Assembly: GCA_016930485.1 (NCBI GenBank)
Contig: JAFGGP010000030.1
Span: 2,745 to 66,744 of the forward strand
Length of the DNA stretch: 64,000 nucleotides
DNA from: Candidatus Omnitrophota bacterium
GTDB taxonomy: Bacteria; Omnitrophota; Gorgyraeia; JAFGGP01
Direction of reading: 5' to 3'
In this document: positions 31,359 through 49,724 of the stretch, piece after piece
Layout: each line of letters begins with the position of its first letter
How positions within the stretch are numbered: the stretch's first letter is position 1
Translations under genes and position numbers: made by a program
Notes under the pieces: model-generated
Seen by the model: only the letters and a program-made list of their open reading frames with translations
Told to the model about the DNA's origin: nothing
Databases searched by the model: none

Positions 31359-32429
31359 ATGGTCGCTACGTTATTCGGTGGTTATACGCTCGGCATCGAC
31401 GGCTTTCGTGTCTCGGTAGAGGTGGATATCTCGGACGGACTCCCCTCAGTAACGGTTGTGGGACTTGCCAATACCGCGGTGAAAGAGGCCCGCGACCGGG
31501 TAAAGAGCGCTATTAAAAATAGCGGCTTTAAATATCCTGCCAGCAAGATCACCGTCAATCTGGCACCTGCCGATGTAAAAAAGGAAGGTGCCCTCTTCGA
31601 CCTGCCTATCGCCCTGGGAATTCTCATATCATCAAACCAGCTGAGGCCCTTCCGGGATATCGGCCGATACTTCCTGTTCGGTGAGTTGTCACTCGACGGA
31701 AGCATACGGCCGGTCAGGGGTATACTGCCTCTGGTGCTCTCCCTTAGCAAATACGGTAAAGCATTTATTCTCCCTGAACAAAATGTCGCCGAGGCAAGCA
31801 TAGCAAATAAGCTGGACATCCTTGGCGTGAAAAATCTGAAGGAAGTGGTTCTATTTTTAGAAAAGAAATCAGATATTCTTCCTCTACGGGTCAACCCTGA
31901 TGAGTCTGCCGCACGGCATCCGGCGACAGAAACTGATTTCTCCGAGATAAAGGGGCAACGATTTGTAAAACGGGCCCTTGAGGTTGCGGTGAGTGGCGGT
32001 CACAATATCCTGATGATCGGGCCGCCGGGAAGCGGCAAGACCATGCTCGCAAAACGTATCCCGACCATCCTGCCGCCTTTACCATACCCGGAGATGATCG
32101 AGACCACGAAGATTCACAGTATCTGCGGACTTCCGCACGCAACGCCCCTGGTGAGGAGTCGTCCTTTCAGGGCGCCGCATCATACTATCAGTGACGTAGC
32201 CATGGTAGGCGGTGGCAGTATTCCCCGCCCCGGAGAAGTGAGTCTGGCCCATAACGGGGTGCTCTTTCTGGATGAGCTGCCCGAATTCCCACGTCATGTA
32301 CTGGAGGCCCTGAGAGAGCCGCTTGAGGAAGGTGCGGTGCTTATCTCTCGTGCACACTCCAGCATACACTTTCCCGCGCAGTTTATGCTGGTTGGGGCGA
32401 TGAATCCCTGCCCCTGCGGCTCGGAATGA
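31359..32429 (+). pseudogene. comM: comM/yifB (Mg-chelatase-like AAA+ competence protein), 5' fragment truncated by insertion
   Basis: [29 protein letters not shown].., Walker [14 protein letters not shown], Walker [10 protein letters not shown]. The fragment ends NPCPCG-SE* at the element junction. Confidence 0.9.
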
Positions 32430-34065
32430 CAACAAAGTGGAATCTGTCTCTCTTCTTGGAAAGGTCAGAATCGAGGAATAACTGCACTTCTAGATGAAAT
32501 TTTCTCAACTTGCGGTCATAGTTAACAATAATCTGGTTAACCAAAGTCCTAAGCTTTTCCTGCTTTTCCTCATCAGTCAGATTCTTCCACATCTGGGGAA
32601 GATTGCATAAATCCTCAAAGCTAGTCTGCAAAGCAATCTCCTGTAAATTAATCTCTTCGCCCTGAGAGGCTAATTCAGCCATCCTGTCTCTTATGGAATC
32701 AATTCTCTTCTTGTTCTCATCAAACCTCTCAACGAAAGTAGTATCATCAATAACCTTGTTCTCAAGTTTCTCAAGTAAGGTATTCCTAACCTCAACCAGC
32801 CTTTTTTCTTCCTGAACAAGCCTTTTCTTCTCATCGTCAAAATCAGACTTAACAGGCTTTGACTGTTGCCTTATCTCCTTAAGCATTTTCTGTTTATCAT
32901 TCAAGAATTTCTCATTCTTTGAAAGCTCAAGCAATGTCCTCATAACCTGCTCTTCTAAAACATACCCCGGCACAACCAATCCTTTGCAGACACTTCTTCC
33001 TTTCTGTATTGAGTTCTGGCATCTGTAATAGAAATATTTTTTATCATATGTTTTTTTGAAATAAAGATACCCGAACATTCCGCCCTTGCAATGTCCGCAT
33101 CTGGCAAGGCCTGCAAGCAAATAACTTTTTTTTGCTTTACTGGGCTTCATGTATTTCTGTTTTAACAACGCCTGCACTCTCTCAAACATATCTTCAGGAA
33201 TAATCCCTTCATGTTCTCCCTTAAATATTTTCCAAAGTCTAGGCTCAACATTCTTCAGCTTGCCTGTTCCAAGATCAGTCTTTCTCTTGCCATACCAAAC
33301 CTTGCCTGAATATGTCGGGTTAGTGAGAATCCGTCTGATAGAGGTTGCGGCCCAGGACAAGCCCTCAGGAGTTTTAATCTCTCTTTTGTTCAATTCATGG
33401 GTAACTCTTCTAAGACTTTTGCATTCAAGATAAAGCCCATAGATTTTTTCAACCAGCTCAGCATCTTTCTTAACAAGATACAATCTGCCTTTTTCAGGGG
33501 CGATTTTGTTAGCCTCTTTTAATGCCTCATCCTCGCTTAATCCTTTCTCAAGAAGCTTTCTTACCAGCTTGCCCTTAGTAACATATCCTAGAGGCACAAC
33601 TCCACCTGTCCATTTTCCTGCTAATGCCCTATGGTGCATGTCCGCACTTACTCGTTCAGAATCAATCTCCCTTTCCAGCTGAGCGATAGAGCCAAGAAGA
33701 TTAATAATGAATCTTCCCATCGGCCCGGTAGTATCAATGCTCTCGGTAAGGGAAACAAGCTTAACATTATGCCTCTGCAATTTCTCCATCAACTCAATCA
33801 AATCTTTCAAAGAGCGAGTGATCCTATCTAATCTTGTAACAATAACAACCTGAATCCTGCCTGCTTCAATATCATTCATTAACTCCTCAAAAGCAGGGCG
33901 TTTAGTATCCTTTGCAGAAATACCTTCATCCTTGTAGGGCTTGTTCTTGTAAAGCTCAAAACCCTGAGCCTTGCAATATTGCCTTAACCGTTCTTCCTGT
34001 GTCCTTAGTGAATCCCTGTCAATCTGCTGTGTTGTTGAAACTCTTACATAAGCTCCTGCCTTCAT
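32383..34065 (-). CDS. Large serine recombinase (integrase)
   Basis: [20 protein letters not shown] (catalytic Ser), [13 protein letters not shown], recombinase domain GGVVPLGY, Zn-ribbon [16 protein letters not shown], then a coiled-coil. The start is set at MKAGAY (the track start 34113 is 16 codons upstream). The last ~8-12 codons lie beyond attL in comM-antisense sequence. Confidence 0.9.
32409..32434. other. attL of integrated element
   Basis: Core TGCCCCTGCGGCT (32409-32421) matches TGCCCGTGCGGCT at 49248-49260. The element-side arm is AATGACAACA (32425-32434). Confidence 0.8.
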
Positions 34066-34078
34066 CAAGAAATCCTTT

Positions 34079-34723
34079 CTAAGAATTTTTTCTTTGGGAT
34101 AACTCTTTTCCAAAAACCATCAACGCAGAATCAATTTCTTTTCTTGAGTATAATCTCCTATAGCGAGCATGAAGCGAATTAAAAAATCGGCTGTATGAAT
34201 CATAATAGCTATCTATTATTTTTTTGTTTAAAGACCCTTGCTGGATTCTCCCAGTTTTAAAATATTGAAATGCTCTGTATACATGTCGGTCAAAAAGAGG
34301 GAATTTCTCAGGATTACAGATATGACAGATAAAAAGCTGTATCACTGGCCCATTAGGAGAGATATATTTAAGGGTATCTTGAAAATCTTCTAATGACATC
34401 TGGCTTTTCTTGAAAAGGTTAATGTCATGCACTTTTTCAATGGCTCTTTTTATTAGCGACTGGTGTTTCTTGCTCAACTGCGCATATTTCCTTTTGCCTG
34501 CTAATTTCCAGCACAATATATCTCTTAATTTTGTGCTTATTAGCTGATGTGAATTAATTGCATCGAAATAAACTTGGAGATCATATTTTTCATTATCAAA
34601 TTGCCGTAAATACTCAAGCAATCCTATCTCAAACTTTTCTAGTCTTTTATTTATCATCTTAATAGTAGCAGGACTGATTTTTTTAAGGTTTCTAAACTCT
34701 TTATCTCTTTCCCCTATTTGCAT
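34079..34723 (-). CDS. Hypothetical protein
   Basis: 214-aa ORF co-oriented with the recombinase. No motif recognised with confidence. Confidence 0.5.
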   Translation of the reverse strand: MQIGERDKEFRNLKKISPATIKMINKRLEKFEIGLLEYLRQFDNEKYDLQVYFDAINSHQLISTKLRDILCWKLAGKRKYAQLSKKHQSLIKRAIEKVHDINLFKKSQMSLEDFQDTLKYISPNGPVIQLFICHICNPEKFPLFDRHVYRAFQYFKTGRIQQGSLNKKIIDSYYDSYSRFFNSLHARYRRLYSRKEIDSALMVFGKELSQRKNS

Positions 34724-34967
34724 CTTTAGGCCAGTAATACCTTACTTGTTTGGTAACCGCCAATTTCACCCCAATATCAAGAATTGATTTAAATGCCCGT
34801 GTTGCCGCTCTTTCGCTCAAGCCGCTTAACCTCGCCAGCTCTTCCAAATCAACCGCACTTCTCGGCGTTCCCTTCCTGGAAAGAAGAGCCATAAGAGAGC
34901 CAGCATCTTTGTCCAGTTTCGAAAGTTTAATATCCCAATCCTCCAACTCAGGCTTTTTCTTTTTCAC
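34701..34967 (-). CDS. Small wHTH-like protein
   Basis: 88 aa. SAVDLEELARLSGLSERAATRAFKSIL resembles a helix-turn-helix. Confidence 0.45.
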   Translation of the reverse strand: MKKKKPELEDWDIKLSKLDKDAGSLMALLSRKGTPRSAVDLEELARLSGLSERAATRAFKSILDIGVKLAVTKQVRYYWPKDANRGKR

Positions 34968-35256
34968 AAGCCGCTCCTTTCTGCATTAACTTATTCAAAT
35001 ATTTCAAATCAGCCTCAAGTAAAATATCAAGGACAGCATTAAGCCTTACAAACTCATCGCTGTTTTCTTTAATCTCGATTGTCCTGCAAGGCTGCATCTT
35101 TCTTGCCCTTCTCCATATCTCTTGCCTTTCAACTCCATAAATCCCGTTAGAATCAGCCCACTCACTAAAAAGAGGAAAAAGCTCTTTGCCTTCATTCTTA
35201 GAGGCATGATCCTTGAATGACACAACCTTTTCTTTATAGAAAGCTCTTTTATTCAT
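34948..35256 (-). CDS. Hypothetical protein
   Basis: 102-aa ORF overlapping its neighbour by 20 nt in the same operon-like block. Confidence 0.45.
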   Translation of the reverse strand: MNKRAFYKEKVVSFKDHASKNEGKELFPLFSEWADSNGIYGVERQEIWRRARKMQPCRTIEIKENSDEFVRLNAVLDILLEADLKYLNKLMQKGAACEKEKA

Positions 35257-35332
35257 GCTTCTCTATCTGTTTGTATTCTGTATCTTAATTATACAAAATA
35301 TAGAAAGATTGTCAAGAAAGAAATAGAAATGA

Positions 35333-35515
35333 TTAATCTTCAGATAGATATTTAATGCTCTTTAAGGATTCAAAAGGATAGTAATTAAACTTATATCCCT
35401 GATTATTTCCCTCTTCGTTTACTACTTCTTTTACTGCTCTGCATTCCTCATCTATATCTGCTTTCTCTACTGTTTTTGTTTGCTCGTCAATAAAAGTTAA
35501 TTCGTACCTTGCCAT
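35333..35515 (-). CDS. Hypothetical small protein
   Basis: 60-aa ORF from the track only. Confidence 0.3.
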   Translation of the reverse strand: MARYELTFIDEQTKTVEKADIDEECRAVKEVVNEEGNNQGYKFNYYPFESLKSIKYLSED

Positions 35516-35643
35516 TAAGTTTGAAGATAAAAAAGCCTTTTAAATATTATTATTAATAGGAAACTCTGTTTAATCCTTTTTATCACTCTCATTCAGTAGT
35601 AACAAATAGAAAGATTTATAAACTTCGTATCCTTATAAAAAGT

Positions 35644-36111
35644 ATGAGCCTTGATGAATTTTTGAAAGGAATAGAAGAGAACAGGAAGAAGGGCGAGGTA
35701 ATTATTTCAAGAAGAAAAATCCAGGAAATGCTCTCAGGCAAGATTGTTATTTATGAGTATATCAGCCCTGATGCGGAGAAATTAAGAGCTCAGTCTGCCC
35801 TTAAATTTGGACAAATCAAGCTCACTGGGAACAAGGCAAAAGATGATACTCTCTTATCTCTATATTCTGATGAAATAGTCCTCGAAACAAAAAAGGGATA
35901 TTACGGCGGCAGGCTCGATGCTTTTGATGGAAGTTATTTCCATCTTGGACAGCGTGTGTTTTCCGATAAGCCAATAGATTTTATTTCATACAGAAAGCAG
36001 CGTGGCACTAAAACCGAGATGGTTCCCGAGGATGAGGTTGTTACAATATACAAGATGCCTATAAAGAATACTGATGATTTTTATAGGACAAGGGTCAATC
36101 ACAAGAAGTGA
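35644..36111 (+). CDS. Hypothetical protein
   Basis: 155-aa ORF with no recognisable motif. Confidence 0.45.
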   Translation: MSLDEFLKGIEENRKKGEVIISRRKIQEMLSGKIVIYEYISPDAEKLRAQSALKFGQIKLTGNKAKDDTLLSLYSDEIVLETKKGYYGGRLDAFDGSYFHLGQRVFSDKPIDFISYRKQRGTKTEMVPEDEVVTIYKMPIKNTDDFYRTRVNHKK

Positions 36112-36113
36112 TT

Positions 36114-38126
36114 TTAAATAATCTTCAGAAACTCAGCGATAGAATAAATCTCTGCTTCACTGCTTAACCCTGCAAGCTCTTCAATTAATTTCTTCTTTGC
36201 ATTATTATCAAGGCAAACAAGCATAATCCTGTCGCATTTTCCCCGATCCTTAATCACATTAATATATTCGGTCTTAAAGGTGGAGATGCAGATTTCAACT
36301 GCAACCTTTTTTTCATCCTTGATATAAAACAAATCTATCTTCTTGCCCTCAAACTCCTTTTCAATCTCTACCTGCTTACAGCCCTTGTTTTTCAGGTAAT
36401 CAGCAAGGTAATGCTGTATAAAAACATGCAAAGAGCCCTTGCCGCCTGAATACTCCGGCTTTCTTGGTTTTTTAATAAGCCCATAACCCTTGTCAGTTAT
36501 CACAAAAAACTTTGACTGGCCGCCTCTTCCTGAAAGGTTGAGATAAACCGGCTCTGCAAGTTTCTCATTCTCAATATGCCTGTAAATCCTCTTCGCCTTC
36601 TCATTGCTTAAATGCAAATCAATAGCCCTGTCATTAGAGCTTACAAACTGCCTGTGAAAGATGTCATTCAATACATCTTTGATTTCATCAAGTTTTTCCT
36701 CGCTTTTTTCTTCCTCAGCTTCCTTCTTTTCAGCCTTATATGGCCTTCTCGGCTTTACAGCTTCAAGGATATAAACAAACCTGCTGTTGTTCTTTCTCTT
36801 ATCTTCCCTGCTTATTTCAAGCTCATCAATCTTTTCCATGCCGGGGATTTTATACATCTTGGAAAGGAAGGGGGCAGGGTATCGGGAAGAAAACTTGACA
36901 AGCATTTCCCTTTCTTCCTTGCTAATCAACCTGGCAAATTTTCTCTGCTCCTTGTCCTGCACGCCCATAGAATCAAGCATTCTGTTGGTATCATTTGAAT
37001 CAGAAAGAGTGAACATGATTTTTGTAGAGCTTGTGCCGAAAATGCCCTGCCCCATAAGAGAGGGGTACTGTCCGATCACTATCATGTTTATCTTGGCTTT
37101 CCTGACTTCTGCAAGATGATGGTTGATTATCGGCATTCCTCTATCTGGCCTCTTCTCAAAATTCGCATCAAACAAAAGCATGGCATCATCTATTATCAGG
37201 AAATGCCGCAGGTCAGTTTTATTATTCTCCTTGTAAGAAAAGAGCCATGAGATAAGGGCATTGACGATAAATACCTGCTGTGATGCCGGCAAACTTCCAA
37301 TATTAAAAATCACATTCTCATTGACTAATTCTTCAAGGCAGCCGGAAGAGCAATCCAAAGCACCCCTTACAGGCCCTTTTAATATGCCGCCGATTCTGTT
37401 TAATGCGGATTCAGCATAATGGAAGCTCCTGCTCATCTTCGGGAAATCCTTTGACTTTATGTAATCATGCAGTTCAAACAGGCTCGGCTTCACCCCGAAT
37501 TTATCATATTCAGAAGCAAGGTCATAAGACTGCTCAATCAAGAAATTCTTTGTGCCGTCATAAATTGCCTCTGCCTGAATAAACATATCCCAAAGGGAAG
37601 CATACCATTCATGCCTTGTTACATTCTTGGGCGGCTCCATCAGATTGAATTTCACCTGCTCGTCAAAATCAACGGTAATTATGTTTGCCTTCTTGTACAA
37701 TTTTACAAGCTTTTCCGTATCCTTTGCCTTCACAAAAAACCAGCATTTTATTCCTTGCGAAATCGCCTGAGGGGCAATAAAGAAATTTGCGATTGTTGTT
37801 TTGCCTGTGCCCGGCTCTCCTGCAATCAGGATATGAAGCTCTTCGGGCATAAAGCCGACAAACTGATTTTCTTCCGCAACGCCGAATTTTATTTCTCCGT
37901 CAGCTTCTTCTGAGGGGGAAGGGAAAGGATTTGTCCTTAGAGACTTCTCTACAAGGTATGGCTGGACAAGAAGCATCAAGAGGTTATAACTTTCATAATC
38001 AGAATTATCAGCCATAACGCAGTTAAGCAATGCGCTGATTTTACTGTCATCCTCAAGCCCTAAATCTTTTATCTGCTTGGCAAGTGCTAAAACCTGCCCT
38101 ATGTCTATCGGTCGCCCGGCTTGCAT
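36114..38126 (-). CDS. HerA/FtsK/TraG-superfamily P-loop NTPase fused to C-terminal wHTH + PD-(D/E)xK-like module
   Basis: Walker A IAGEPGTGKTT, Walker B HFLIIDDA, IVIGQYPS. The C-terminus is ..FFVITDKGYGLI..HVFIQHYLADYLKNKG..KIDLFYI..KVAVEICIS, similar to the 43029-43727 protein. Confidence 0.65.
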   Translation of the reverse strand: MQAGRPIDIGQVLALAKQIKDLGLEDDSKISALLNCVMADNSDYESYNLLMLLVQPYLVEKSLRTNPFPSPSEEADGEIKFGVAEENQFVGFMPEELHILIAGEPGTGKTTIANFFIAPQAISQGIKCWFFVKAKDTEKLVKLYKKANIITVDFDEQVKFNLMEPPKNVTRHEWYASLWDMFIQAEAIYDGTKNFLIEQSYDLASEYDKFGVKPSLFELHDYIKSKDFPKMSRSFHYAESALNRIGGILKGPVRGALDCSSGCLEELVNENVIFNIGSLPASQQVFIVNALISWLFSYKENNKTDLRHFLIIDDAMLLFDANFEKRPDRGMPIINHHLAEVRKAKINMIVIGQYPSLMGQGIFGTSSTKIMFTLSDSNDTNRMLDSMGVQDKEQRKFARLISKEEREMLVKFSSRYPAPFLSKMYKIPGMEKIDELEISREDKRKNNSRFVYILEAVKPRRPYKAEKKEAEEEKSEEKLDEIKDVLNDIFHRQFVSSNDRAIDLHLSNEKAKRIYRHIENEKLAEPVYLNLSGRGGQSKFFVITDKGYGLIKKPRKPEYSGGKGSLHVFIQHYLADYLKNKGCKQVEIEKEFEGKKIDLFYIKDEKKVAVEICISTFKTEYINVIKDRGKCDRIMLVCLDNNAKKKLIEELAGLSSEAEIYSIAEFLKII

Positions 38127-38623
38127 ATTATATTCCTGTCATGCAGATTGAAAATAGCCAACCATGCATTGACATTTATCTCCCTTGCATGTTTCTTGCA
38201 TAAATTCATATTGTTCACAACAAACCTGTAGCAGTCATCTCTGGGGCAAAGCTTCTGCATGCAGCCTTTCTTGGCACAGACAAGGTGTTCCTTCTCAACG
38301 CATGCCTTGCATGCTGTATGCCCGCACTCAGCCTGATGCCCGAAATTATCATGGGTTCTCGCATGGCCGCAGTCATACAGCCCTGAGCTGGTTACATGGT
38401 TATGGACAATGCCCCCGTCCTTGCCGAATTTTACCTCTTCTTCCTCTTCTGAAAGGATTAAATCACCTGATCCCAAAGAAAGTTTCTTTACTTTCCTTGT
38501 CTTCTTGATGCCCCTTGCCTTTGCATTCATCAATGTTTCAAGCTTTTTTCTCTGCGTTGGCTTCATCTTGGAAAGTATATCTGCTATCCCCTCAAGCATA
38601 TCATCTTCATTCAATTTAGCCAT
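38105..38623 (-). CDS. Cys/His-rich (zinc-binding) protein, overlaps ATPase start by 22 nt
   Basis: CGHARTHDNFGHQAECGHTACKACVEKEHLVCAKKGCMQKLCPRDDCYRF..CKKH. Confidence 0.5.
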   Translation of the reverse strand: MAKLNEDDMLEGIADILSKMKPTQRKKLETLMNAKARGIKKTRKVKKLSLGSGDLILSEEEEEVKFGKDGGIVHNHVTSSGLYDCGHARTHDNFGHQAECGHTACKACVEKEHLVCAKKGCMQKLCPRDDCYRFVVNNMNLCKKHAREINVNAWLAIFNLHDRNIICKPGDR

Positions 38624-38951
38624 TCCCTATCACCTCGCTTTCATGTATTTGCCAGTTATTCCTTTAATTTTACCACCCTGTTGGCGGATTACAAAGATAA
38701 TTATGAACAGAAAGGCAACAAATCCAAACTTCTGAAAGTTCAAAATCAAAAACAATGATTTGCTTTCGCTAATTGCTCTAACCTCAAATATAGAATAACT
38801 GACATCACTCTGTTCCTCTTCCTGAAAGTTGCCAATAAGCCCAATGGGTTCATTCTCTTCCTTATTCTCTTTGATTTTTCATTTAACACCACAGAGCTAG
38901 GCATTTAATTTTTTCTGCCAAGGGCAACCCGCCCCAGGATTAATCGGGTCA

Positions 38952-39167
38952 GTGAAAAAAATAAAAGCCGCTCTTTTGAGCAAGCTCAAGGTTATGAAAA
39001 ATCAAATTCACTTTATGGAAGAGAACGAAATACCTGAATGGCTTAATGGGCCGTTCATGAGCGAAGAGGAACAAGACGAAGCGATGTCTTCTTATCAGTA
39101 CATTATTGAAAGGAGGTTAGAGCAAAGACAAAATGAAAACTTTACAGCAAATCAAATCGGATTTTGA
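38952..39167 (+). CDS. Hypothetical small protein (first of four overlapping ORFs)
   Basis: ORF track; start/stop overlaps with the next ORFs, a phage-like operon layout. Confidence 0.4.
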   Translation: MKKIKAALLSKLKVMKNQIHFMEENEIPEWLNGPFMSEEEQDEAMSSYQYIIERRLEQRQNENFTANQIGF

Positions 39168-39471
39168 ACAGATACTTTCAGAAGTCCTGAGGATTAATGG
39201 AATATCTGTTGAATCGGCTGTCCAAGTGTCAACAGTGATACTACAGGAATCTGGCAAATACAACAGATGCCCTGAGATTAAGACAGAGAATGAAGATGAG
39301 TTTGTGTTTGCAACAGAAAGCCAGAAAAAAGCAATGAGAAACTTGAGGATAAGTTTCCCTGAAGAAATTGGCAAAACTGAGGCATCACAGCTCATCGAGA
39401 GCGCAGTTACAAAGCTTCGCAGTAACGGAAACGGCAGGGCTATTCCTGCCCGCTCTCCTTTCCAAAAATGA
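39133..39471 (+). CDS. Hypothetical protein
   Basis: 112-aa ORF in the same block. Confidence 0.4.
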   Translation: MKTLQQIKSDFEQILSEVLRINGISVESAVQVSTVILQESGKYNRCPEIKTENEDEFVFATESQKKAMRNLRISFPEEIGKTEASQLIESAVTKLRSNGNGRAIPARSPFQK

Positions 39472-39692
39472 AGCAGTACAAAAGAAAGGAGTTGCCCTAT
39501 GAGTGCATCATAGATGTAGAGTATATGCCTTTTCCCTCTGAGGAATCAAAGAGAGAGGCATACTACACTCATGCAAAGCTCTTTCTCAGGGCAAAGGAAA
39601 GAGAAGCCAGAGACAAATACAGCAAGCCAGTGAACATTGACAGCAGAGAGCAGGGCGGGCTTGCGGCCCTCTCCTCTTACTATATAAGATGA
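39468..39692 (+). CDS. Hypothetical protein
   Basis: 74-aa ORF with an ATGA-type overlap with its neighbours. Confidence 0.4.
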   Translation: MKQYKRKELPYECIIDVEYMPFPSEESKREAYYTHAKLFLRAKEREARDKYSKPVNIDSREQGGLAALSSYYIR

Positions 39693-40009
39693 CAGATGAC
39701 TTTTGGAAAGATGCAGAAATCATAGATGCTTATACAGATGAGCAGGCTGTTGATGATGGAATTGTAATTCCAGTCAGCTTTGGCATTATCAATAGGGTTA
39801 CAAGGCCAGTCTTTGATGACTTTGTTAAAGATGAGGAATGTGATCTTGCCAGATTCAATATCTTCATGGATAAAGCCATAGAGATTTTTGATTCAGTCAG
39901 GCAGAAGAAAGATGATTGGTTCTATAAGGTAGTCGTTGATGAAATTCCTTATTTCGTCTGTCAGAATGATACTGGATATTTCACATTAATGAAACCAGAG
40001 GACTACTAA
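39689..40009 (+). CDS. Hypothetical acidic protein
   Basis: 106-aa ORF, D/E-rich. Confidence 0.4.
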   Translation: MTDDFWKDAEIIDAYTDEQAVDDGIVIPVSFGIINRVTRPVFDDFVKDEECDLARFNIFMDKAIEIFDSVRQKKDDWFYKVVVDEIPYFVCQNDTGYFTLMKPEDY

Positions 40010-40032
40010 ATTTTTTTGTTTCCTCTTTAGCA

Positions 40033-40578
40033 TTATCCTCGGATTCCCGTCTTTTTCATTCTTCGATGAAATCTGCTGTTGTATTCCTCTTTGAACTTAG
40101 GCCCCAACTGAGATAAAGGAACTGTTAGGGGCTCCCCTCGCTCTGCCCTTGCCATATTTTCCTTAACAATATCTTTCTCTTTTGAACCATTCATTCCATC
40201 TATTTTCTCTAACATTTCTTCTTCTGCCTCATCAATTTCTTTCTCTGTTTCCCGCTCTTCTTCCAAAGCTTTATCTTTGCAATTAAAACAAGAAAGATAA
40301 TTTGCTTTGTGATATTTCTTTCGGCAGATATGACAAAGCTCCAAATTATGATGTATTGCAAAATGGCATTTCCTGCAAAGAACAATATTTTCTTGTTCCT
40401 TTAAGTCAACATATTGATCCTTTTTGTCATATGTTGATTCATCCAAATGATGAACCGTCAGAAATAGGCTTGAACCACACCACTCGCATTTTCCGCCTCT
40501 GGCTTTAATAAATTCGTCTCTTTTTTCCTTCCACTCCTTTCTGTTCCAAAGATTATGCAGTTCTTTTCTCTTTTCCAT
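40033..40578 (-). CDS. HNH-endonuclease-like protein
   Basis: CEWCGS..LTVHHLDE ... CRKCHFAIHH plus further CxxC pairs. Confidence 0.6.
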   Translation of the reverse strand: MEKRKELHNLWNRKEWKEKRDEFIKARGGKCEWCGSSLFLTVHHLDESTYDKKDQYVDLKEQENIVLCRKCHFAIHHNLELCHICRKKYHKANYLSCFNCKDKALEEERETEKEIDEAEEEMLEKIDGMNGSKEKDIVKENMARAERGEPLTVPLSQLGPKFKEEYNSRFHRRMKKTGIRG

Positions 40579-40798
40579 GTCTCGCTTCCCATTTATCCGC
40601 TGATTTGTTAAACCAAAAATATAACCCCCATATAAAAATAAGCCCCAAGCTTAGTGAAAAAATATCTTCTCCATTGATTCTTGAATTAATACTCAATTGG
40701 TTAAAAAGAAATAAAAAAGATATTAATATTGCAGACCAAACAGAGATCCTGAAAGGCTTATTCCACCATCTAATTTTCTTTGTCTCATTTTTATCCAT
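40553..40798 (-). CDS. Small membrane protein
   Basis: 81 aa with two hydrophobic helices (VWSAILISFLFLF, LSLGLIFIWGLYFWF). Confidence 0.4.
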   Translation of the reverse strand: MDKNETKKIRWWNKPFRISVWSAILISFLFLFNQLSINSRINGEDIFSLSLGLIFIWGLYFWFNKSADKWEARHGKEKRTA

Positions 40799-41029
40799 TT
40801 CAGATTAAAAGCTCTATATGATTTTAAATCTTTTGAAAATTAGCCTGCCCTTCGGTGCAGATATTAATAAGGTGTGCCCTCGGCTCTGGCTGGCTATTTA
40901 ATAGGGCACACACTGAAGCCCTAAAGCCCTAAAGCCCCGCTGAATGCCGCCCCTCATTTGATAATGAGCCTCTCCTATTCAGAAGGGCTTTCCCCTTTTT
41001 CGAAAGGGTCGGGCTTGTTTCTTTGCTTG

Positions 41030-41365
41030 TTTTTGATGAGATTGAGATGTGGTTAGTTATTGAGATTGCTATGCAGGTATTTTTAGATTGCAAATGTTCT
41101 TTTAATTTAGTCAGGTTCAGTTTAGGTTAATGAGTGAGCAGGTGAGCTCTTTGTATTCAGTTAGTTAGAAGGATATATCACCTCTTTTACGAGATGTTTT
41201 CTTGTGTTTTGTATTTCAGTTTCAGTTATAGAGTTTTAGTTTCCGTTTCCGTGCGTGTTATTTGATTCTTTGATGTAAGTTGTTGATTTATAGAGTGTTA
41301 GTTTTGTTTCTTGTATATAGAAATATATAATGGAAACAGAGAAACAGAAACGAACAGGGGGTATT
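41030..41365. repeat. Iteron-like repeat cluster in 720-bp non-coding region of the element
   Basis: GAGATTG x3 (+TAGATTG); TTCAGTT x5; GTTTCC GTTTCC opposed by GGAAACAGAGAAACAGAAAC; an AT-rich core tatatagaaatatataa. Confidence 0.5.
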
Positions 41366-41530
41366 TGGCTATTGGCTTTCCCCCCACATATCTTTATCCA
41401 AAGGTAAAGAACCCCGGATTTACGGGTATTTTCGCATTTCTGAGGCGTTTAGAAGGTAAATACGCGGGGAGAATAACTGGAATACCCCCAAGGGGTAAAT
41501 ACCGGATATTATACTTATTATACCTATTTT

Positions 41531-42796
41531 TTAGGGGGTGTTTTGTTTCTGGAAGTATAATTCCATTAATTTCTTGCCTAAGCCTTCCTTTAAAGCTGAT
41601 CCAATAAGTGCTTCTTGCAGGGAAAGGTCTTTTCTTAACAAATCTGCAAGGATACTTTCAAAGCCGCCCTTCTTTTCATCAAGCGCAATGGCAGTTTTAA
41701 CATCTAAAACACTGCCGCATTTCTTGCAGAATAAATGATCCTTCGGGTTTATGTCATTGCACCTGGGGCATTGTTTTATCTTTGGCTCTTGTTTTTCTGT
41801 CTCTTCTTTCTTGAAACCATGAATTTCAAGCATGACATCATTAACATCTCTTGAAACTAAATGTGAATATTCGGAAAGCATGTTGCTTGAAGGAACCCAG
41901 CCAAAATAAACTTTAGCCTGTGATTCATTTATCTGCTTGTTGATAAGCAAATGAGTAACCCTTGTATGCCTGAACAGATGGGGATAAATTCTCTTCTTTA
42001 TTTTTGCTTTCTCTTTCAGCCTTAAAACTAATGCTCTGAAAGCCGCATATTTCATTCTTTGATTTTTGTTTCTATTCCCAAGCATAACCCATAAAGGCGC
42101 ACTTGGATCGTTTTTTAACGGATGAGAATTAAGCCATGTAGTTAAATAAGAATCAGAAACTACTATTCTCGGAGTTCTATGCCCTGTCTTTCCGCTTAAG
42201 TCAATGATGAAGCTGTAATTATCCCTTGATATATCGCCTATGCTTATTTTCCCTATCTCTCCTATTCTTGCGCCCAATTCATAGAGCATGCCGACGAATG
42301 CTTTATCTCTTGGGTTCTCTGCAACCTCAATCAATTTATCAATTTCTCTTTCAGTTAAGATATCAGAGGCATTCACTCTAGGTTTTTCCTTTTCTGAAAC
42401 ACTTACCCTCATCCAGCTAATTATTTCTGGTTGTTCCTGTCTTTCAAGGTAGCCATCCCCGAACACATGCCATCTGTAGAATTTCTTGAGAATAGTTTTG
42501 TAGCTATGCCTTGTCCATACCGAATAATCCTCTCTGCCATCAATCTTTAACACAGCCTGCTTTAATTGATCCTTCGTGGCCTTGTCAAAATCAATTTTTA
42601 TGTAATCCCTTGCAAGAATAATCAAATAGCTTATTATCTTTGTTTTTCTCGATATGCTTAATCTTTCAAGGCTGCATGCTTCATCAAACTTGAAAATCAA
42701 ATCTTTATTTGCCTGAGAAATCTCGGCTTTTTGCAGATGTTCTTTTGCCCTTGTATACTGCAAATCATGCCCGTAAATATCTTTTTTGGGATTCAT
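41531..42796 (-). CDS. Tyrosine recombinase/integrase with C-terminal zinc ribbon
   Basis: ELGARIGEI (Arg), HLFRHTRVTHLL (HxxR), SEYSHL (Tyr), CPRCNDINPKDHLFCKKCG. Confidence 0.8.
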   Translation of the reverse strand: MNPKKDIYGHDLQYTRAKEHLQKAEISQANKDLIFKFDEACSLERLSISRKTKIISYLIILARDYIKIDFDKATKDQLKQAVLKIDGREDYSVWTRHSYKTILKKFYRWHVFGDGYLERQEQPEIISWMRVSVSEKEKPRVNASDILTEREIDKLIEVAENPRDKAFVGMLYELGARIGEIGKISIGDISRDNYSFIIDLSGKTGHRTPRIVVSDSYLTTWLNSHPLKNDPSAPLWVMLGNRNKNQRMKYAAFRALVLRLKEKAKIKKRIYPHLFRHTRVTHLLINKQINESQAKVYFGWVPSSNMLSEYSHLVSRDVNDVMLEIHGFKKEETEKQEPKIKQCPRCNDINPKDHLFCKKCGSVLDVKTAIALDEKKGGFESILADLLRKDLSLQEALIGSALKEGLGKKLMELYFQKQNTP

Positions 42797-43028
42797 ACAA
42801 ATAGTACGAGAGCCGTGCTACTATTTAAAGCTTTCGACATATACTACTTGTTTACAGCCTCAGACATGCTTATAACGACTTGTTCATGTCGTGGGCTTTG
42901 ACATGTTTAAGTCTTTTTTGATTTTATACTTCAAATCCGAAGTGTAAAGGGCGACGAATTGCTTTACCCAATCAGGTAAATGAGCATTCAAATCTTTTAA
43001 ATATTTCTCCTGAATCTGTGTCTTGCTT

Positions 43029-43727
43029 TCATGATATTCCATTTTCCCCATCATCTCTTTTTGGGGTTTTTGTTGATACGTCGAATTTAAAAGCCAGAAT
43101 CATCTTTACATTTTTTCCAAACTCATTATCCTTCAGGTCTTCTGATATCCTGTGTTGTGCGGTTCCGTTGGTTGGAACACAAATCACCGAATCAAATCCA
43201 GAATAAAGATTTCTCCTTATGTTCTTCAGGTGATTTGAATTTCCTGTTTCTATCTCAACAGCTATCCTGTTCTTGCCTTTCCTTATCGCAATATCGGCGT
43301 TATCTTCCTCGATTGAAACATGATAGCCCTGTTTTTCATAATATTCGGCAATTTTCAGTTTCCAGAATTTATGCTCAATGCTTTCATTGAAGGTATTAAC
43401 ATGATAGCCGCTTCTTCCTAAAATACCGGCGCCCTTAGGCGTTATCTCAAATAATACAATCCATCCCGATTTTGTGATAATTCTCTTAGGAATGATAAAG
43501 CCGTGTGAAATCCATAGTTCTTTCCATTTGTTTCCTGTTTTCGGGTTTACGCCGAGCCTTTTATACCTATCAACAACTGTTGAAATAGGGTGGTTCACTA
43601 TGTCAATCATAAAAAGGCATTCCCTTGATCCCGGCAATTCCCCCTCGTCTAAACTATCCTCATATTTCATTTCTCCCTCGTCCTTATTTGAAAATAGTAA
43701 TCCTGTAGTATTTAAGCGTTGTATCAA
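43029..43727 (-). CDS. wHTH + PD-(D/E)xK-like nuclease-fold protein
   Basis: ..IVLFEITPKGAGILG..HKFWKLKIAEYYEKQGYHVSIEEDNADIAIRKGKNRIAVEIETGNS.. A paralogous unit of the ATPase C-terminus. Confidence 0.55.
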   Translation of the reverse strand: MIQRLNTTGLLFSNKDEGEMKYEDSLDEGELPGSRECLFMIDIVNHPISTVVDRYKRLGVNPKTGNKWKELWISHGFIIPKRIITKSGWIVLFEITPKGAGILGRSGYHVNTFNESIEHKFWKLKIAEYYEKQGYHVSIEEDNADIAIRKGKNRIAVEIETGNSNHLKNIRRNLYSGFDSVICVPTNGTAQHRISEDLKDNEFGKNVKMILAFKFDVSTKTPKRDDGENGIS

Positions 43728-44002
43728 GATAGGCGAAGTTTTTAAGCGTTGTACAAGGATGCGGAGGAAGAAATTTAAAAGGGTTGTTTAAGGATAAGAG
43801 AAAGGAATTGCTAAAAGGAAAGAATTTCCCAATCCTTGCCTAAATTCCTTTCATCAAAAGAATATTTTTCAGAATGATTATATCTGAAACTTCCATCTTT
43901 AAAGATAACTATACCACCCCCATAACTTTTTTCCCTTTTTTAAATTTGTACGGTTAAACAGAAAATGCGGGTGGAGAGAATGCAAAATTGAATATTCTAT
44001 CT

Positions 44003-45199
44003 TTATTCTTCGTCAATACCTTCAGCCATCATCTTGCCAACCTTATTTTTTTGCTCAAGAAGATGGCGAGGGAGGAAAAATATATTTGCGATTAAGGTAG
44101 GAATGACAGCGCTTGCTATAACTGTTGCCACGAGAAATGAATATTGTTGCAGCGTTACGATGCCATGCGAATATCCGTAGAGAGCTGAAATCGTGCCAAA
44201 GGTAAGCCCTGTTGACATCAAAAGCGTGTAATACCATTTTTCTCTTTTCTCTTTACGGAAAATGCCGATAATCGGATAAAGCCCGAATATCTTTGATATT
44301 ACCTTGCCGATAAAAAGCATCAAGAATACAAATGGTGCGCTTATCAAAGCGGCAATTGAAACAAGCGAGCCAGCTCGAATAAAGTAAAACGGCGTAAGAA
44401 AACCTACAGTTAATGTCCTCAATCTCCTCACCCAATGATGCTCCTTAGATGCAAACTCTGCAAGCAGCATACCTGCAATGTATGCTGGCAATACCGCCTC
44501 GCTTCCTGACCAAAGAGCAAGCGCCCCGAGACCAAAAAGCACAAATATCACCCACTTTGCCCTAATTGCGGCTGTCCTGTTCCCATAAACCCTTGTGAGA
44601 AACGAAGTCATGACAGGAAATAATCCAAGTATGATAATGCTGCCGACAACAAAAATTATAGTCTTATACGTAAAAGGGGCAAAAATTAAACCCAAAGCAA
44701 GCACAGTTCCAAGGTCATTGATAAAGCAGGCGCCTAATATGCCTTTGCCAAATTCGGTTTTATTAAACCCCATTTCAAGCATGACAGCATAAACAACTGC
44801 CATAGATGTTGTTGAAAGAGCAATGCCCGCAAGCCAGCTTGCCTGAGTGCCCCAATGAAGAATAAATCTAGCGAAAGCAGTGCACCCCAAAAACGGCGCA
44901 AGAAAACCAACAACCCCCACCACTACAACCTCTTTCCATTTTGAGCGAATCACTTTTGGGTCAAGTTCTGCGCCTGCTAAAAAAGTAAGCAGCATCGCTC
45001 CGGTTGCAGCCAGAAATTTAAGCCACTCGAGATCGCTTCCAAAGACATTCGGCCCAAAAAAGTGGCTGACGACATTTGCGACAATAACGCCCATGCATAT
45101 CTCAACAAGCGCAATTGAAATTCTGAGATGATGTGCAATAATCGCAGAAATTACAGCCAGCCCAAGCCACGCCGTGGCGATTAAATAAAATAGTTCCAT
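44003..45199 (-). CDS. Cation/H+ antiporter (Na+/H+ exchanger family)
   Basis: 398 aa with ~11 TM helices; sequence typical of the CPA-type Na_H_Exchanger fold (..LAATGAMLLTFLAGAELD..). Confidence 0.75.
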   Translation of the reverse strand: MELFYLIATAWLGLAVISAIIAHHLRISIALVEICMGVIVANVVSHFFGPNVFGSDLEWLKFLAATGAMLLTFLAGAELDPKVIRSKWKEVVVVGVVGFLAPFLGCTAFARFILHWGTQASWLAGIALSTTSMAVVYAVMLEMGFNKTEFGKGILGACFINDLGTVLALGLIFAPFTYKTIIFVVGSIIILGLFPVMTSFLTRVYGNRTAAIRAKWVIFVLFGLGALALWSGSEAVLPAYIAGMLLAEFASKEHHWVRRLRTLTVGFLTPFYFIRAGSLVSIAALISAPFVFLMLFIGKVISKIFGLYPIIGIFRKEKREKWYYTLLMSTGLTFGTISALYGYSHGIVTLQQYSFLVATVIASAVIPTLIANIFFLPRHLLEQKNKVGKMMAEGIDEE

Positions 45200-45210
45200 A
45201 CTTTAAAACC

Positions 45211-46503
<1,293 letters not shown>

Positions 46504-46520
46504 TCATCTTAAATTTAAAT

Positions 46521-47240
46521 TTATCTATTGATAAATAATGAAAAGGCGGCAACTACAAGCACAATATCCACAAAATAACCAAACGCCTTGCTGGACATAT
46601 TTTTAATAAACCTTCTTGCCGTCCATGAACCAGCCACCATCGCTAATCCTAAAATCACTCCTGTAATAAAATCCTGCATCGTCAGCAGGGCATAACTGCC
46701 ATAAACCACAGTTTTCGTAAGATGCATTACAACGGCTGTAACAGCTTCGCTTGCGACATAAGCTGTGGGAGTAAGATTAAGGCTCAAAAATGCAACAGCA
46801 CCTATTGGCCCGGCACTGCCTAAAACAGCAGACAAAAACCCGACTAACGCTCCAAAAGGAATAAACCATTTTTCTGCGATAGTATACTTTATATTAAGGT
46901 GCCGGAGAAGCACGATTACAAACAGAAATATTCCGATTGCCTTCATAATCAGCCCTGAAGGCAATTCAACAAACATTCTAGATCCTAGAACAGCCGCGGG
47001 CAGAGCCCCGATACAAAAATAAATAACTGGCTTCCACTTAATCTCTTTATACCCAAACCCCGCGCGTGAAAGATTGCCCATCATCCAAGCTATTGTAAGA
47101 ATAGGGATTGCCTTCTTGGCTCCTACAAGAAAAGAGAAAACCGGCAATATGATAAGGGAGCCGCCAAAACCAGCTACGCCGGAAATAGTTGCTGCCAGCC
47201 AACTGATAAATAACAGCATCGACCAAATTGCTGTTGTCAT
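46521..47240 (-). CDS. TauE/SafE-family anion exporter
   Basis: 239 aa, ~7 TM, G-rich helices (GVAGFGGSLIILP; LGSAGPIG). Confidence 0.7.
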   Translation of the reverse strand: MTTAIWSMLLFISWLAATISGVAGFGGSLIILPVFSFLVGAKKAIPILTIAWMMGNLSRAGFGYKEIKWKPVIYFCIGALPAAVLGSRMFVELPSGLIMKAIGIFLFVIVLLRHLNIKYTIAEKWFIPFGALVGFLSAVLGSAGPIGAVAFLSLNLTPTAYVASEAVTAVVMHLTKTVVYGSYALLTMQDFITGVILGLAMVAGSWTARRFIKNMSSKAFGYFVDIVLVVAAFSLFINR

Positions 47241-47281
47241 AAAATTCGCTCCCCAAGAATTTTTTCTTTTTTCCTCATATG

Positions 47282-47941
47282 CTAAAACATTCCTCCTTTG
47301 CCTTCCAATTTTTCAATCGCCCTGATCCATGAATCTCCTTCCTTGCCAAAACCTTCCTTGGAAAACCGGTAATCATGCTTTCTCTGAAATTCATTCAGTT
47401 CAGCAATCAAGCCTGATATCTTTTCTGACTCAATTGCTATTATCTCCTCAATCGCTTTCCTGTTTTTAAATTTATTGATAGTTGTTAATAAATGGGGGAT
47501 ACAGAAACCGAAAGAATTTTTATAGTGATACTTTAATTCAGAATCAATTAAATTCTCAATAAAAACAGAAACATAGCGGTTTTCGACATCTTTCTCCTGC
47601 CTGCAGAACATGCAATTATTTTTTAGCTTCCTGGTTTTATTCAAGTCCTTAATTACCGCAGGCAGGTCATCTGTCTTTCCTAATTTTTTGTTAATAAGCT
47701 GTGCTAAATCCTCATACACAATGCTTATGCCAAAGCCGTCTCCGAATTTCTGTAATTGCCAGACATGGCGATTGCAAAAGCCGTATGATTCCCTGATTTC
47801 TTTTCTCAATCCCGGATCGTTTACGCTTTCATATAAAAAGTCATCCATAAATTTATGCGTGCTCTTTCTGATCAAAGAACAGACAAGGCACCCCTTTTCT
47901 TTTATGGCGTCCAGCAAGTTATAATACGGCGTGTGTTTCAT
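47282..47941 (-). CDS. Cys-rich hypothetical protein (duplicated CxxC ... GFCxxH unit)
   Basis: GCLVCSL...YGFCNRHVWQL and NCMFCRQ...FGFCIPHLL. Confidence 0.55.
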   Translation of the reverse strand: MKHTPYYNLLDAIKEKGCLVCSLIRKSTHKFMDDFLYESVNDPGLRKEIRESYGFCNRHVWQLQKFGDGFGISIVYEDLAQLINKKLGKTDDLPAVIKDLNKTRKLKNNCMFCRQEKDVENRYVSVFIENLIDSELKYHYKNSFGFCIPHLLTTINKFKNRKAIEEIIAIESEKISGLIAELNEFQRKHDYRFSKEGFGKEGDSWIRAIEKLEGKGGMF

Positions 47942-48288
47942 GTCTCTATAACAAAAAAGCCTCTATCTTCTTTAAGTAGAGGATTATATAAAAACACCTC
48001 TACCATTTTTTAGTAGAGGTTATCAACCTTTAGTTCTGAGGTGGTTTTTAAAAAGGGCGAACCTCATCGCCTTTAATCCTTATTAGTTAAGATACCATAA
48101 ATTCATGAAAAGGCAAGTTAAATGTGCATGGAGGTATAAAAGAATACGGGACACTAAGAAAATTGAAAATCATGAACAAATAAAGAACAAAAAAATATAA
48201 ATACGCCAATAACGATATCGTTTGGGCAATGAGGTCTGCCCAGGTTAATCCCGAACCGCCTCAGGCTAATGACTTCTAAGGGATTAAT

Positions 48289-48516
48289 ATGATTGCAACA
48301 TTACAACAATACATGGTAATTCTCATTCTACCCTCTCTTGTTTTCGGCATTCCCTTCTGGATAATGATATTTATTGCGACATATGTGCCTTTCCCAAGGA
48401 TGGAGAAAGCAGATAGATTAAAGATGAGTGTTAGTAATGCTACAATTCTCACATTATTGATGCTTTTGATATCTTATCTGTTTTTAGTGCTGCTTTTCGA
48501 ATACATACTAAAATGA
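48289..48516 (+). CDS. Small membrane protein
   Basis: 75 aa with three hydrophobic helices. Confidence 0.4.
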   Translation: MIATLQQYMVILILPSLVFGIPFWIMIFIATYVPFPRMEKADRLKMSVSNATILTLLMLLISYLFLVLLFEYILK

Positions 48517-48929
48517 GGCGCTCAAGACATGTCGACAAAGGGCTGCTGAAATTTTTCATGCACAGCAACAGCCTGAATGACTTGCTGGAGATTCTTAACA
48601 ATATCTGCGGGCAATTGGACTTGAATTATTTAAACCCGAGATTAAGGCATTTCAAATATTTCCAGTTTACCTTCTTCGGCTTGATGTTAAGGGCAAGAGG
48701 GCTGCTGGAAATTATGCTTTTCAGGCTGGAACCGATTGAAAACAATTTCTCTGAATTCAAGAAGATAAGAGTAGAGCTCCTGAATTTAAGGAAGAATGTG
48801 CAAATCGCAGACAACTTCATAAAAGAAAAAAAGATGAGGGAAGGGAGAGATAAGGTAATTGAGGTTGCTGAAGAATACTCAAAAATCTTTGAAGATATAA
48901 ATAAGTTATTGGACAAATATATACCATAG
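48513..48929 (+). CDS. Hypothetical protein
   Basis: 138-aa ORF overlapping the previous stop (ATGA). Confidence 0.4.
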   Translation: MRRSRHVDKGLLKFFMHSNSLNDLLEILNNICGQLDLNYLNPRLRHFKYFQFTFFGLMLRARGLLEIMLFRLEPIENNFSEFKKIRVELLNLRKNVQIADNFIKEKKMREGRDKVIEVAEEYSKIFEDINKLLDKYIP

Positions 48930-48975
48930 TCCGCATCTTTGAAATCTTATGCTTTATGTGTCCTAAGAACAGAGT

Positions 48976-49188
48976 CTAACAGGAACTATTCAAGAATTCC
49001 TGCACCCTGTTAAAATTTCTGCCCACAGGCTTTCTCCCCCTCACTTCCCAATTTATCACAGTATCCTCGGTAACCCCAAGTTGTGCCGCAAGCTCCTTGA
49101 TCATCAAACCCCTGTCCATCCTTGCTTTCCTTATCCTCTCGCCCAAATTCTTAGGATTTTGGGGGTAATCAGGGTCAAAATCATTCAA
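48976..49188 (-). CDS. XRE-family HTH protein (frame stays open upstream through attR)
   Basis: LGERIRKARMDRGLMIKELAAQLGVTEDTVINWE. The annotated start is TTG. The same frame has no stop up to 49275. Confidence 0.65.
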   Translation of the reverse strand: MNDFDPDYPQNPKNLGERIRKARMDRGLMIKELAAQLGVTEDTVINWEVRGRKPVGRNFNRVQEFLNSSC

Positions 49189-49223
49189 ATTAAGGCTTAA
49201 TTCAAGGTTATAGACAAGAGGAA

Positions 49224-49260
49224 TGTTGTCATTGTGTACATCAGGGATGCCCGTGCGGCT
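49224..49260. other. attR of integrated element
   Basis: Element-side arm TGTTGTCATT (49224-49233) and core TGCCCGTGCGGCT (49248-49260). Confidence 0.8.
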
Positions 49261-49724
49261 ACTTTGCCTCCTCCCTCAGGGAGTGTCGTTGTTCCGTAAC
49301 GGCGATTGAAAAATACCGCGCCCGCATATCAGGGCCTCTTCTTGACAGGATTGACATCCATATCGAGACACCGGCCCTTGCCTACAAGGAACTTGCAGGT
49401 TCTGATGAGGAGGAGGCCTCGTGTACCATACGCGGTCGAGTAGTTGCTGTGCGGGAAGTACAGATGGGACGTTTCAAGAAAACCGGCATTTTTTGTAACG
49501 CCCACATGAAGATATCCGAGATAAAGAAACACTGCGGTCTTGAGCCGGCGGCCGGGCGGCTCCTAAAGATGGCAATAGCAGAGCTGGGAATCAGCGCGCG
49601 GGCCTACCACCGGATACTGAAGGTGGCGCGGACAGTGGCCGATATGGATGGGTCGGACCGCATCGAAGAAAGCCACGTAGCAGAGGCTATACAGTACAGA
49701 AGTCTGGATAGGCGGTTGTGGTAA
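49250..49724 (+). pseudogene. comM: comM/yifB 3' fragment
   Basis: ..CGYFASSLRECRCSVTAIEKYRARISGPLLDRIDIHIETP...ARAYHRILKVARTVADMDG..HVAEAIQYRSLDRRLW*. In frame with the 5' fragment; the total is 509 codons when joined. Confidence 0.9.

Follow-up and report, generated by a model that had tools for sequence, protein, structure and literature searches.

A large serine recombinase gene that crosses its own attachment site, with alternative 3' ends, in a comM-targeting family of bacterial integrative elements

Results

The island and its attachment sites

In a 64,000-nucleotide stretch of a Candidatus Omnitrophota genome (GenBank assembly GCA_016930485.1, contig JAFGGP010000030.1, positions 2,745 to 66,744 of the forward strand; hereafter the window, meaning this whole stretch), the competence gene comM is interrupted by an island that encodes a large serine recombinase (LSR). 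The open reading frame (ORF) of this recombinase crosses the attachment site (att) at one end of the island, and a segment encoding an XRE-type helix-turn-helix (HTH) domain lies at the other end. The features of the locus are the following (aa, amino acids):

31257..32410, + strand: comM 5' fragment (Mg-chelatase-like competence protein), interrupted in the NPCPCG codons
32409..49249: integrated island, 16,839 bp
32385..32434, - strand: attL, composed of P arm, core AGCCGCAGGGGCA (32421-32409) with CA at 32410-32409, and B' arm (antisense comM)
32383..34065, - strand: large serine recombinase, integrated isoform, 560 aa, identical to P0001
48976..49188, - strand: XRE-type HTH segment, annotated as a 70-aa TTG-started ORF (P0125), matching Pfam HTH_3 and HTH_31
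49189..49247, - strand: linker coding segment, with the P' arm (IPDVHNDNI) followed by PLVYNLELSLN; open in the HTH frame, without a start codon of its own
49224..49273, - strand: attR, composed of B arm (antisense comM), core AGCCGCACGGGCA (49260-49248) with CA at 49249-49248, and P' arm
49250..49724, + strand: comM 3' fragment, located by tblastn and joining; its ORF ends at 49724

The comM ORF on the plus strand is broken at 32421 and resumes at 49261, and joining the pieces at 32421|49261 restores an uninterrupted ComM; by tblastn comM is found in the window as two pieces only, aa 1-388 at 31257-32420 and aa 385-522 at 49248-49661. Both junctions share AGCCGCA[G/C]GGGCA, a 13-bp core with one mismatch. 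When the island ends are joined, the predicted attP is ..TGTTGTCATTCCGAGCCGCAGGGGCATCCCTGATGTACACAATGACAACA.., and the restored comM gives the predicted attB ..GCAAAGTAGCCGCACGGGCAGGGATTCATCG... The simulated attP contains a perfect 10-bp inverted repeat, made of TGTTGTCATT (32425-32434, from attL) and AATGACAACA (49224-49233, from attR), whose arms each lie 14 nt from the central CA (minus strand, 32410-32409 and 49249-49248). Since attP is symmetric around this dinucleotide, CA is most likely the crossover point; in that case the island measures 16,839 bp, the fused protein described below reads SRRGI and the codons taken from the host are eight (RDSSPQPA). The sites are thus short and show a dyad centred on a 2-bp crossover, without a long direct repeat, as in the attachment sites of LSRs. 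The island is an integrative element mobilised by an LSR.

The recombinase and the simulated circle

Judged by its sequence, the window recombinase is a member of the LSRs. Pfam recognises a Resolvase domain (PF00239, E=3e-42), a Recombinase domain (PF07508, E=4e-25) and a zinc ribbon (PF13408 Zn_ribbon_recom, E=9e-12), and the catalytic domain of TP901-1 (3bvp) matches it with E=6e-22. Among 58 homologues R8, V9 and S10 of the resolvase-type catalytic domain are invariant, as are the zinc-ribbon cysteines C323, C326, C349 and C360; both DNA-binding domains, DBD1 and DBD2, are present.

The recombinase ORF starts at TTG 34113 or ATG 34065, reads through 32422|32421 at the codon boundary given by the first-pass annotation of the window, crosses attL into antisense comM and stops at a TAA at 32383. 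Its host-derived end consists of eight codons, RDSSPQPA (32408-32386), and the stop, antisense of comM encoding ..GAMNPCPCG. That annotation had also proposed that excision would bring 49260 into the frame of the XRE ORF (48976-49188) across 24 stop-free codons, SR[T/R]GIPDVHNDNIPLVYNLELSLNL, and would create a recombinase of about 640-660 aa with a C-terminal HTH, and the reconstruction agrees on each point. The ORF of the simulated circle, ..VVIPSR(R/T)GIPDVHNDNIPLVYNLELSLNLNDFDPDYPQNPKNLGERIRK.., is free of stops and in frame with the XRE ORF; its LSR-linker-HTH product has 642 aa when translation begins at ATG 34065 and 658 aa when it begins at TTG 34113, and in the 642-aa form HTH_3/HTH_31 lie at residues 587-639. 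The split falls at residue ~552 of 642, after DBD2, and within this one ORF ~35 codons separate the att core from the HTH downstream; between them the PLVYNLELSLN part of the linker is conserved and strand-forming.

Fused homologues on non-integrated DNA

The fused window sequence was searched against 5.8 billion proteins and the 120 best homologue clusters were considered. Most homologues are 555-560 aa long and cover 86% of the fused query; five of the 120 clusters cover 99-100% of it and carry HTH domains, at 36-66% identity:

P0015: fused, 718 aa, 66% identity
P0034: fused, 632 aa
P0054: fused, 702 aa
P0074: fused, 628 aa
P0094: fused, 618 aa, 36% identity

A further fused representative, P0359 (669 aa), comes from a representative library of 1.84 billion proteins. 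In all five clusters the fused gene lies in the interior of a contig, with element-type genes on both sides and without comM. P0094 is found on 10,650-bp MEGAHIT contigs of three samples, which have exact 141-bp terminal overlaps and differing break points; after trimming they are one 10,509-bp circle, with 0-1 mismatches among the three samples. Every fused ORF contains CGCACGG[G/A]CA, the counterpart of the comM attB core, between the end of the recombinase homology (..LFLD) and the HTH.

If the fusion were real, as the first-pass annotation reasoned, free copies of homologous recombinases should carry the C-terminal HTH, and this is what the five clusters display, the integrated copies ending instead in antisense comM. 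No non-integrated homologue that ends at the same position without an HTH was found, and no stop occurs in the linker among intact related elements. Two homologues considered as counterexamples are both integrated. P0018 (582 aa, with an unusual tail) is 77% identical to P0015 and diverges from it at the same residue; it is an attL form in the second reading frame and adjoins a short comM remnant. P0024 is integrated beside the comM 3' part in the opposite orientation: at this locus (L110) the recombinase, 60% identical, has the orientation of comM, the island is inverted and the ORF runs into sense-strand comM in another frame.

LSRs of 628-789 aa with two C-terminal XRE HTH domains were also observed on IMG/VR viral contigs (L093, L094 and L106), at 23-32% identity and without a comM-type core. 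Because these distant proteins carry such domains, LSR-HTH fusions may extend beyond the comM-targeting family.

One element in both states

The 90%-identity cluster of P0015 contains three 718-aa fused proteins from independent assemblies (L003, L111 and a JGI contig) and two 557-aa proteins, one of them from an Omnitrophota metagenome-assembled genome (L109). L109 is an attL form: it has the same 483-aa gene upstream, and immediately past the recombinase comes the 5' part of comM, on the other strand. Against the attP form L003, its DNA shows 3 mismatches over 1584 upstream nt and 12 over 1640 nt within the recombinase (99% identity), and complete divergence begins right after ..CGC[G/A]CGGGCA. 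Past the core L003 continues as TCCCTGCAGGACAGAATAGCAAC (linker and HTH) and L109 as AGGATTCATAGCAGC, the antisense of FLLVAAMNPCPC. L111, a 9.2-kb contig from another study, differs from L003 by 2 of 4851 nt and has element genes on both flanks of the fused ORF. The att symmetry argument repeats for the L003/L109 pair. Junctions of both kinds are available for a related element, the P0015 element being found at 99% nucleotide identity as attP and as attL, split after GGGCA; the same element in both states at this identity suggests ongoing excision and integration.

A second reconstruction is given by a Desulfobacterales island, which came to light through its attR (L036) in a DNA-pattern scan of GTDB genomes; its attL (L051) and its recombinase, P0080 (43% identity), lie on the same 4.6-Mb contig. 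Joining its ends at the shared GGACA yields an intact ComM and an in-frame recombinase of 719 aa with two HTH domains, and the reconstructed attP is again symmetric, GTTGC-18-CA-18-GCAAC. In this family, then, attP lies within the recombinase ORF, the gene has two alternative 3' ends and the fused ORF is found on circular or unintegrated DNA.

A family-wide pattern and coding constraint on the linker

A short antisense-comM tail, ..SR[RTM][GD][RKM][DG]S..PA followed by the stop, closes the recombinase in at least 65 of the 120 best clusters, and P0018, P0023, P0095 and P0224 read the same att site in a second frame; crossing att is thus the rule in this LSR family, which spans Omnitrophota, Desulfobacterota, Nitrospirota, Chloroflexota and others. 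P0095 reads ~80 codons of antisense comM, the other end of its island lying beyond the 10-kb flank. The core is read in two frames one nucleotide apart, as ..SRTG.. (window, L002) or as ..ARA/T.. (L001, L003, L004); both are open and both rejoin the same HTH frame downstream.

A scan of metagenomes for the P' arm pattern gave 38 matches, ~27 of which are true attR junctions and none an attP form; the same kind of scan of GTDB genome contigs, with a degenerate DNA pattern, gave 38 matches, two of them true. The metagenome junctions, together with L028 and the window, give 26 attR junctions with DNA, and linker statistics were computed on 24 unique intact junctions, over the stretch between the core and a conserved motif, YPxNP, ahead of the HTH. 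In the HTH frame there are no stops in 863 codons, compared with 35 and 158 stops in 839 codons in the other two frames. The linker is 29, 30 or 31 codons long only, its indels are all in-frame, and its variation is greatest at third codon positions. The ratio of non-synonymous to synonymous polymorphism (pN/pS) is 0.36 in the part lying before any potential internal start, 0.23 in the next part and 0.245 in the HTH. An alignment mixing stand-alone HTH proteins with full-length recombinases misplaced the short sequences and was discarded.

By these statistics the linker is under coding constraint (purifying selection). Moreover, the codon at the position of the window's TTG varies among elements (ATG, TTG, CTG, CTT, GTT, GTG, ATT, ACG, TCG), and L070 and L071 have no start codon anywhere before the YPxNP motif ahead of the HTH. 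With an unconserved start and these start-less cases, translation of the HTH as a stand-alone protein cannot explain the constraint, whereas translation of the fused ORF can. The first-pass annotation had cautioned that chance was not negligible; this holds for the window alone, where a one-in-three frame match combined with 24 stop-free codons has a chance of ~0.02-0.07, but chance is excluded by the family data, because the linker has no stops across the attR junctions and fused ORFs occur in five homologue clusters.

Predicted structure of the fused protein

AlphaFold2 models of the fused window protein and of P0034 agree, with predicted local distance difference test (pLDDT) scores of 82 and 85, respectively. 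The residues encoded by att, past the last hairpin of DBD2, are disordered (pLDDT <50; 533-561 in the window, 526-547 in P0034); a predicted beta-strand follows (564-572, VYNLELSLN, in the window; 548-555 in P0034) and then a confident HTH, whose helices span 587-639 in the window model with pLDDT 83-89. How two different frames through the core can both be tolerated is explained by the disorder of the loop that holds attP. In the window model long helices at 367-493 lie between the zinc-ribbon strands, an embedded coiled-coil, and the top Foldseek matches are the SPbeta, Bxb1 and PhiC31 integrases. An alternating hydrophobic, strand-like pattern precedes the HTH in all fused lineages; the C-terminal module past att is made of one beta-strand and one to three XRE-type HTH domains. 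The integrated 560-aa form keeps all catalytic and att-binding domains, and its host-encoded tail is short and non-conserved.

Promoter, cargo, remnants and related HTH modules

Further features of the island are:

35288..35315, - strand: candidate recombinase-operon promoter, sigma-70 consensus TTGACA-16-TATAAT (12/12), a pattern match only
36114..38126: 670-aa KaiC/STAND-like ATPase (cargo)
41531..42796, - strand: tyrosine (phage-type) integrase with a C-terminal zinc ribbon, mid-island
44003..47941, - strand: cargo with a full enolase, a Na+/H+ exchanger, a TauE/SafE exporter and DUF6062

The candidate promoter lies upstream of a four-gene block, orf102-orf88-orf214-recombinase. The only dyad found in a search for an HTH operator is TGTAT-N7-ATACA, over the -10 box of this promoter; it is a possible operator and is not counted as evidence. 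At the window's TTG (49188) neither a promoter-like site nor a Shine-Dalgarno sequence was found. The cargo at 44003-47941 consists of housekeeping-like metabolic and transport genes rather than of phage or conjugation genes, and the internal tyrosine integrase may mark a nested or accreted second element.

Several relatives, the JGI metagenome loci L054, L084, L059, L060, L061, L064, L077 and L078, have a displaced comM 3' fragment, an attR with HTH, and 2-4 kb of cargo without a recombinase. These remnant units adjoin a complete comM with an intact attB-like site and also occur in tandem arrays of two or three; L077, for example, has two units with nearly identical comM arms and different P' arms and HTHs. 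The cargo of L084 is a putative nucleotidyltransferase/HEPN-like pair, judged by eye from the sequences. Serial integrations, a replacement comM 3' end carried by elements, or Campbell-type homologous insertion are possible origins of such units.

In the attR of L057, L064 and L066, and likewise for the proteins P0132, P0146 and P0152, a comM CCA at the second proline of NPCPCG gives an antisense ATG just before the core, in the linker-HTH frame, so that in these hosts the orphaned linker-HTH gains a host-encoded start codon. The HTH module of the island (..YPxNP..LGExIRKxR..INWE..) also forms long tandem arrays, of as many as 24 copies, inside one protein, as in P0228 (4162 aa, 24 modules), P0229 (792 aa, 12), P0230 (611 aa, 9), P0231 and others.

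Discussion

Two isoforms set by the state of the element

The reading that we consider highly probable is that attP lies inside the recombinase's own ORF, that the circle encodes an LSR-linker-HTH protein which would act after excision or on entry, and that the island state encodes a shorter LSR without the HTH. By recombination at the CA in the NPCPCG-coding part of comM the 3' end of the recombinase gene is exchanged, with the result that the integrated copy encodes a 560-aa recombinase with a host tail, and the linker-HTH segment remains, lacking any conserved start codon, at the opposite island end. With this layout the form of the element, circular or integrated, decides between the isoforms that can be made. 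The fusion protein would be made from the circle and would act after excision or on entering a new cell, in integration and/or in HTH-mediated regulation; the truncated form would be the prophage-state enzyme, and the difference between the isoforms would matter for the life cycle of the element.

As to the HTH itself, our best guess is that it may be a tethered DNA-binding module coupling regulation or recombination directionality to the integration state, in parallel to the integration-dependent immunity of mycobacteriophages and the gene partition of SSV-type integrases discussed below. The HTH might serve as a tethered (auto)regulator or in immunity, provide an additional DNA contact in integration, or modulate the DBD2/coiled-coil region where recombination directionality factors (RDFs) act. 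A stronger version, which we regard as doubtful, holds that directionality is set by DNA topology without a separate RDF: the LSR-HTH made from the circle would perform only attP x attB, by docking of the strand and HTH on DBD2 near the coiled-coil/RDF site or by binding flanking DNA, and the truncated enzyme made from the chromosome would perform attL x attR. If this were true, each state would encode exactly the enzyme needed to leave that state.

Some observations weigh against the two-isoform reading. Both isoforms are predictions from sequence, and no attP form of this particular island is present in the databases, where the best fused relative is 66% identical and the unfused P0001 is 100% identical. 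An ATG stands at the position of the window's TTG in 8 of 26 attR junctions, with GAGG 5-6 nt upstream in five of these eight, and in 15 of the 26 the host supplies an in-frame start upstream of the core, so that the HTH could also be expressed alone in some hosts; the recombinase-less remnants L054 and L084 retain an intact HTH, which argues for a function independent of the recombinase. Since some integrated copies and recombinase-less remnants may express the HTH alone, a dual role of this domain is possible.

The same observations can be carried further, to an ordinary stand-alone regulator with its own internal start, active in both states, the open frame through att being mere tolerated read-through. 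This would accord with the annotation of the ORF as a 70-aa protein (P0125), with the intact HTH that heads a small operon in L084, and with the autonomous regulators typical among XRE HTH domains. We judge it improbable, however: the nine codons at the start position and the start-less L070 and L071 fit poorly with a conserved internal start, and the window's TTG has neither promoter-like site nor Shine-Dalgarno sequence. Moreover, the segment upstream of any start is itself constrained in pN/pS, indels and stops, it is open in two frame classes and in lineages down to 36% identity, and a stop with a ribosome-binding site would have been a simple solution were the fusion unimportant. Integration might alternatively be one-way and "suicidal", only the fused protein being functional, the truncated copy inactive and the comM islands bound to decay, for which there is an SSV-type precedent (PMC8371274). 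The many attR remnants without a recombinase, and the frameshifted or truncated HTH of L060, L061, L073, L074 and L088, would suit such a scheme, which appears very improbable because neither the catalytic domain nor the recombinase and zinc-ribbon/coiled-coil domains are damaged in the truncated protein, at least 65 clusters conserve a full-length integrated recombinase, and both states of one element occur at 99% identity in different samples. Finally, a chance frame match, or database proteins mis-assembled over a short repeat, could be suspected from the single-window chance calculated above and from data that are mostly metagenomic contigs; this explanation is effectively refuted, since the shared core is only 13 bp, against an assembly k of 141 (MEGAHIT) or SPAdes, near-identical fused contigs come from independent studies (L003/L111), the closed circle was recovered three times and the family-wide stop-codon and indel statistics agree with a real fusion.

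Comparison with known systems

The SSV-type integrases, with which the first-pass annotation had compared the window, are an apt parallel, attP lying inside the integrase's own gene in both cases. In SSV1, pTN3 and pT26-2 integration partitions the gene and the intact ORF exists on circular DNA only, and according to a 2021 review recombinases which interrupt the gene that encodes them are known only from Archaea (PMC8371274). Those enzymes are archaeal tyrosine recombinases, whereas the present one is a bacterial LSR, found in Omnitrophota, Desulfobacterales and others; there essential parts of the enzyme are split, here only an accessory strand and HTH module are lost.

Integration-dependent immunity was reportedly found by Broussard et al. 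in 2013 in the phages BPs, Brujita and Charlie. In these mycobacteriophage systems the attP core lies inside the gene of a DNA-binding protein, and the viral and prophage forms differ at the C-terminus (PMC3694055; PMC9934374). The window agrees with them in having an att core within the coding sequence of an HTH protein and a state-dependent C-terminus; there, however, a separate repressor gene and a separate tyrosine integrase are involved, while here the HTH is fused to the serine integrase, and integration removes an ssrA-like tag there and a whole folded domain here. An ssrA-like tag is absent from the fused C-termini (..EFLNSSC, ..ERWLSI, ..GVSQGF).

With the canonical LSRs (SPbeta SprA, Bxb1, PhiC31, A118/LI and TP901-1) the family shares the domain architecture, short att sites with a central dinucleotide and a protein-coding target gene. 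In canonical LSRs the int ORF does not include attP, and a distinct RDF protein determines the direction of recombination; we know of no member of that set with a state-dependent C-terminus or a C-terminal XRE HTH. The LSR TnpX of Tn4451/Tn4453 belongs to an element whose circle junction creates a tnpX promoter, so that expression differs from the integrated form; there the junction alters the promoter, here the protein sequence. Competence genes are enriched among LSR targets (PMC10083194).

In synthetic integrase-RDF fusions a flexible linker joins a small protein to the C-terminus of the LSR, and the choice of att pairs for recombination is changed by it (PMC5737554; PMC12286644). Those constructs (Olorunniji et al. 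2017; the SPbeta/PhiC31 cryo-EM constructs, PDB 9dxd and 9teh) are engineered and permanent, whereas the natural fusion is made and broken by recombination itself and its partner is an XRE HTH, not a known RDF. For SCCmec recombinases it has been proposed that the RDF site is obstructed by C-terminal extensions of DBD2 (PMC12286644).

Full-text literature searches returned neither an LSR ORF that runs across attP nor a fusion of an LSR with an XRE domain. Remodelling of a recombinase gene through the reaction that it encodes, described so far for archaeal tyrosine integrases, is extended by the finding to bacteria, in a widespread family of serine integrases. As LSR-mining pipelines take ORFs from integrated copies, they would recover the host-tailed protein and miss the native C-terminal domain in the att-crossing family. 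With att in a disordered linker that is read in two frames, DNA-level and protein-level constraints share the same bases. The family offers a natural, testable case of integration-state-dependent LSR isoforms, which bears on the control of directionality and expression in LSR elements without a known RDF.

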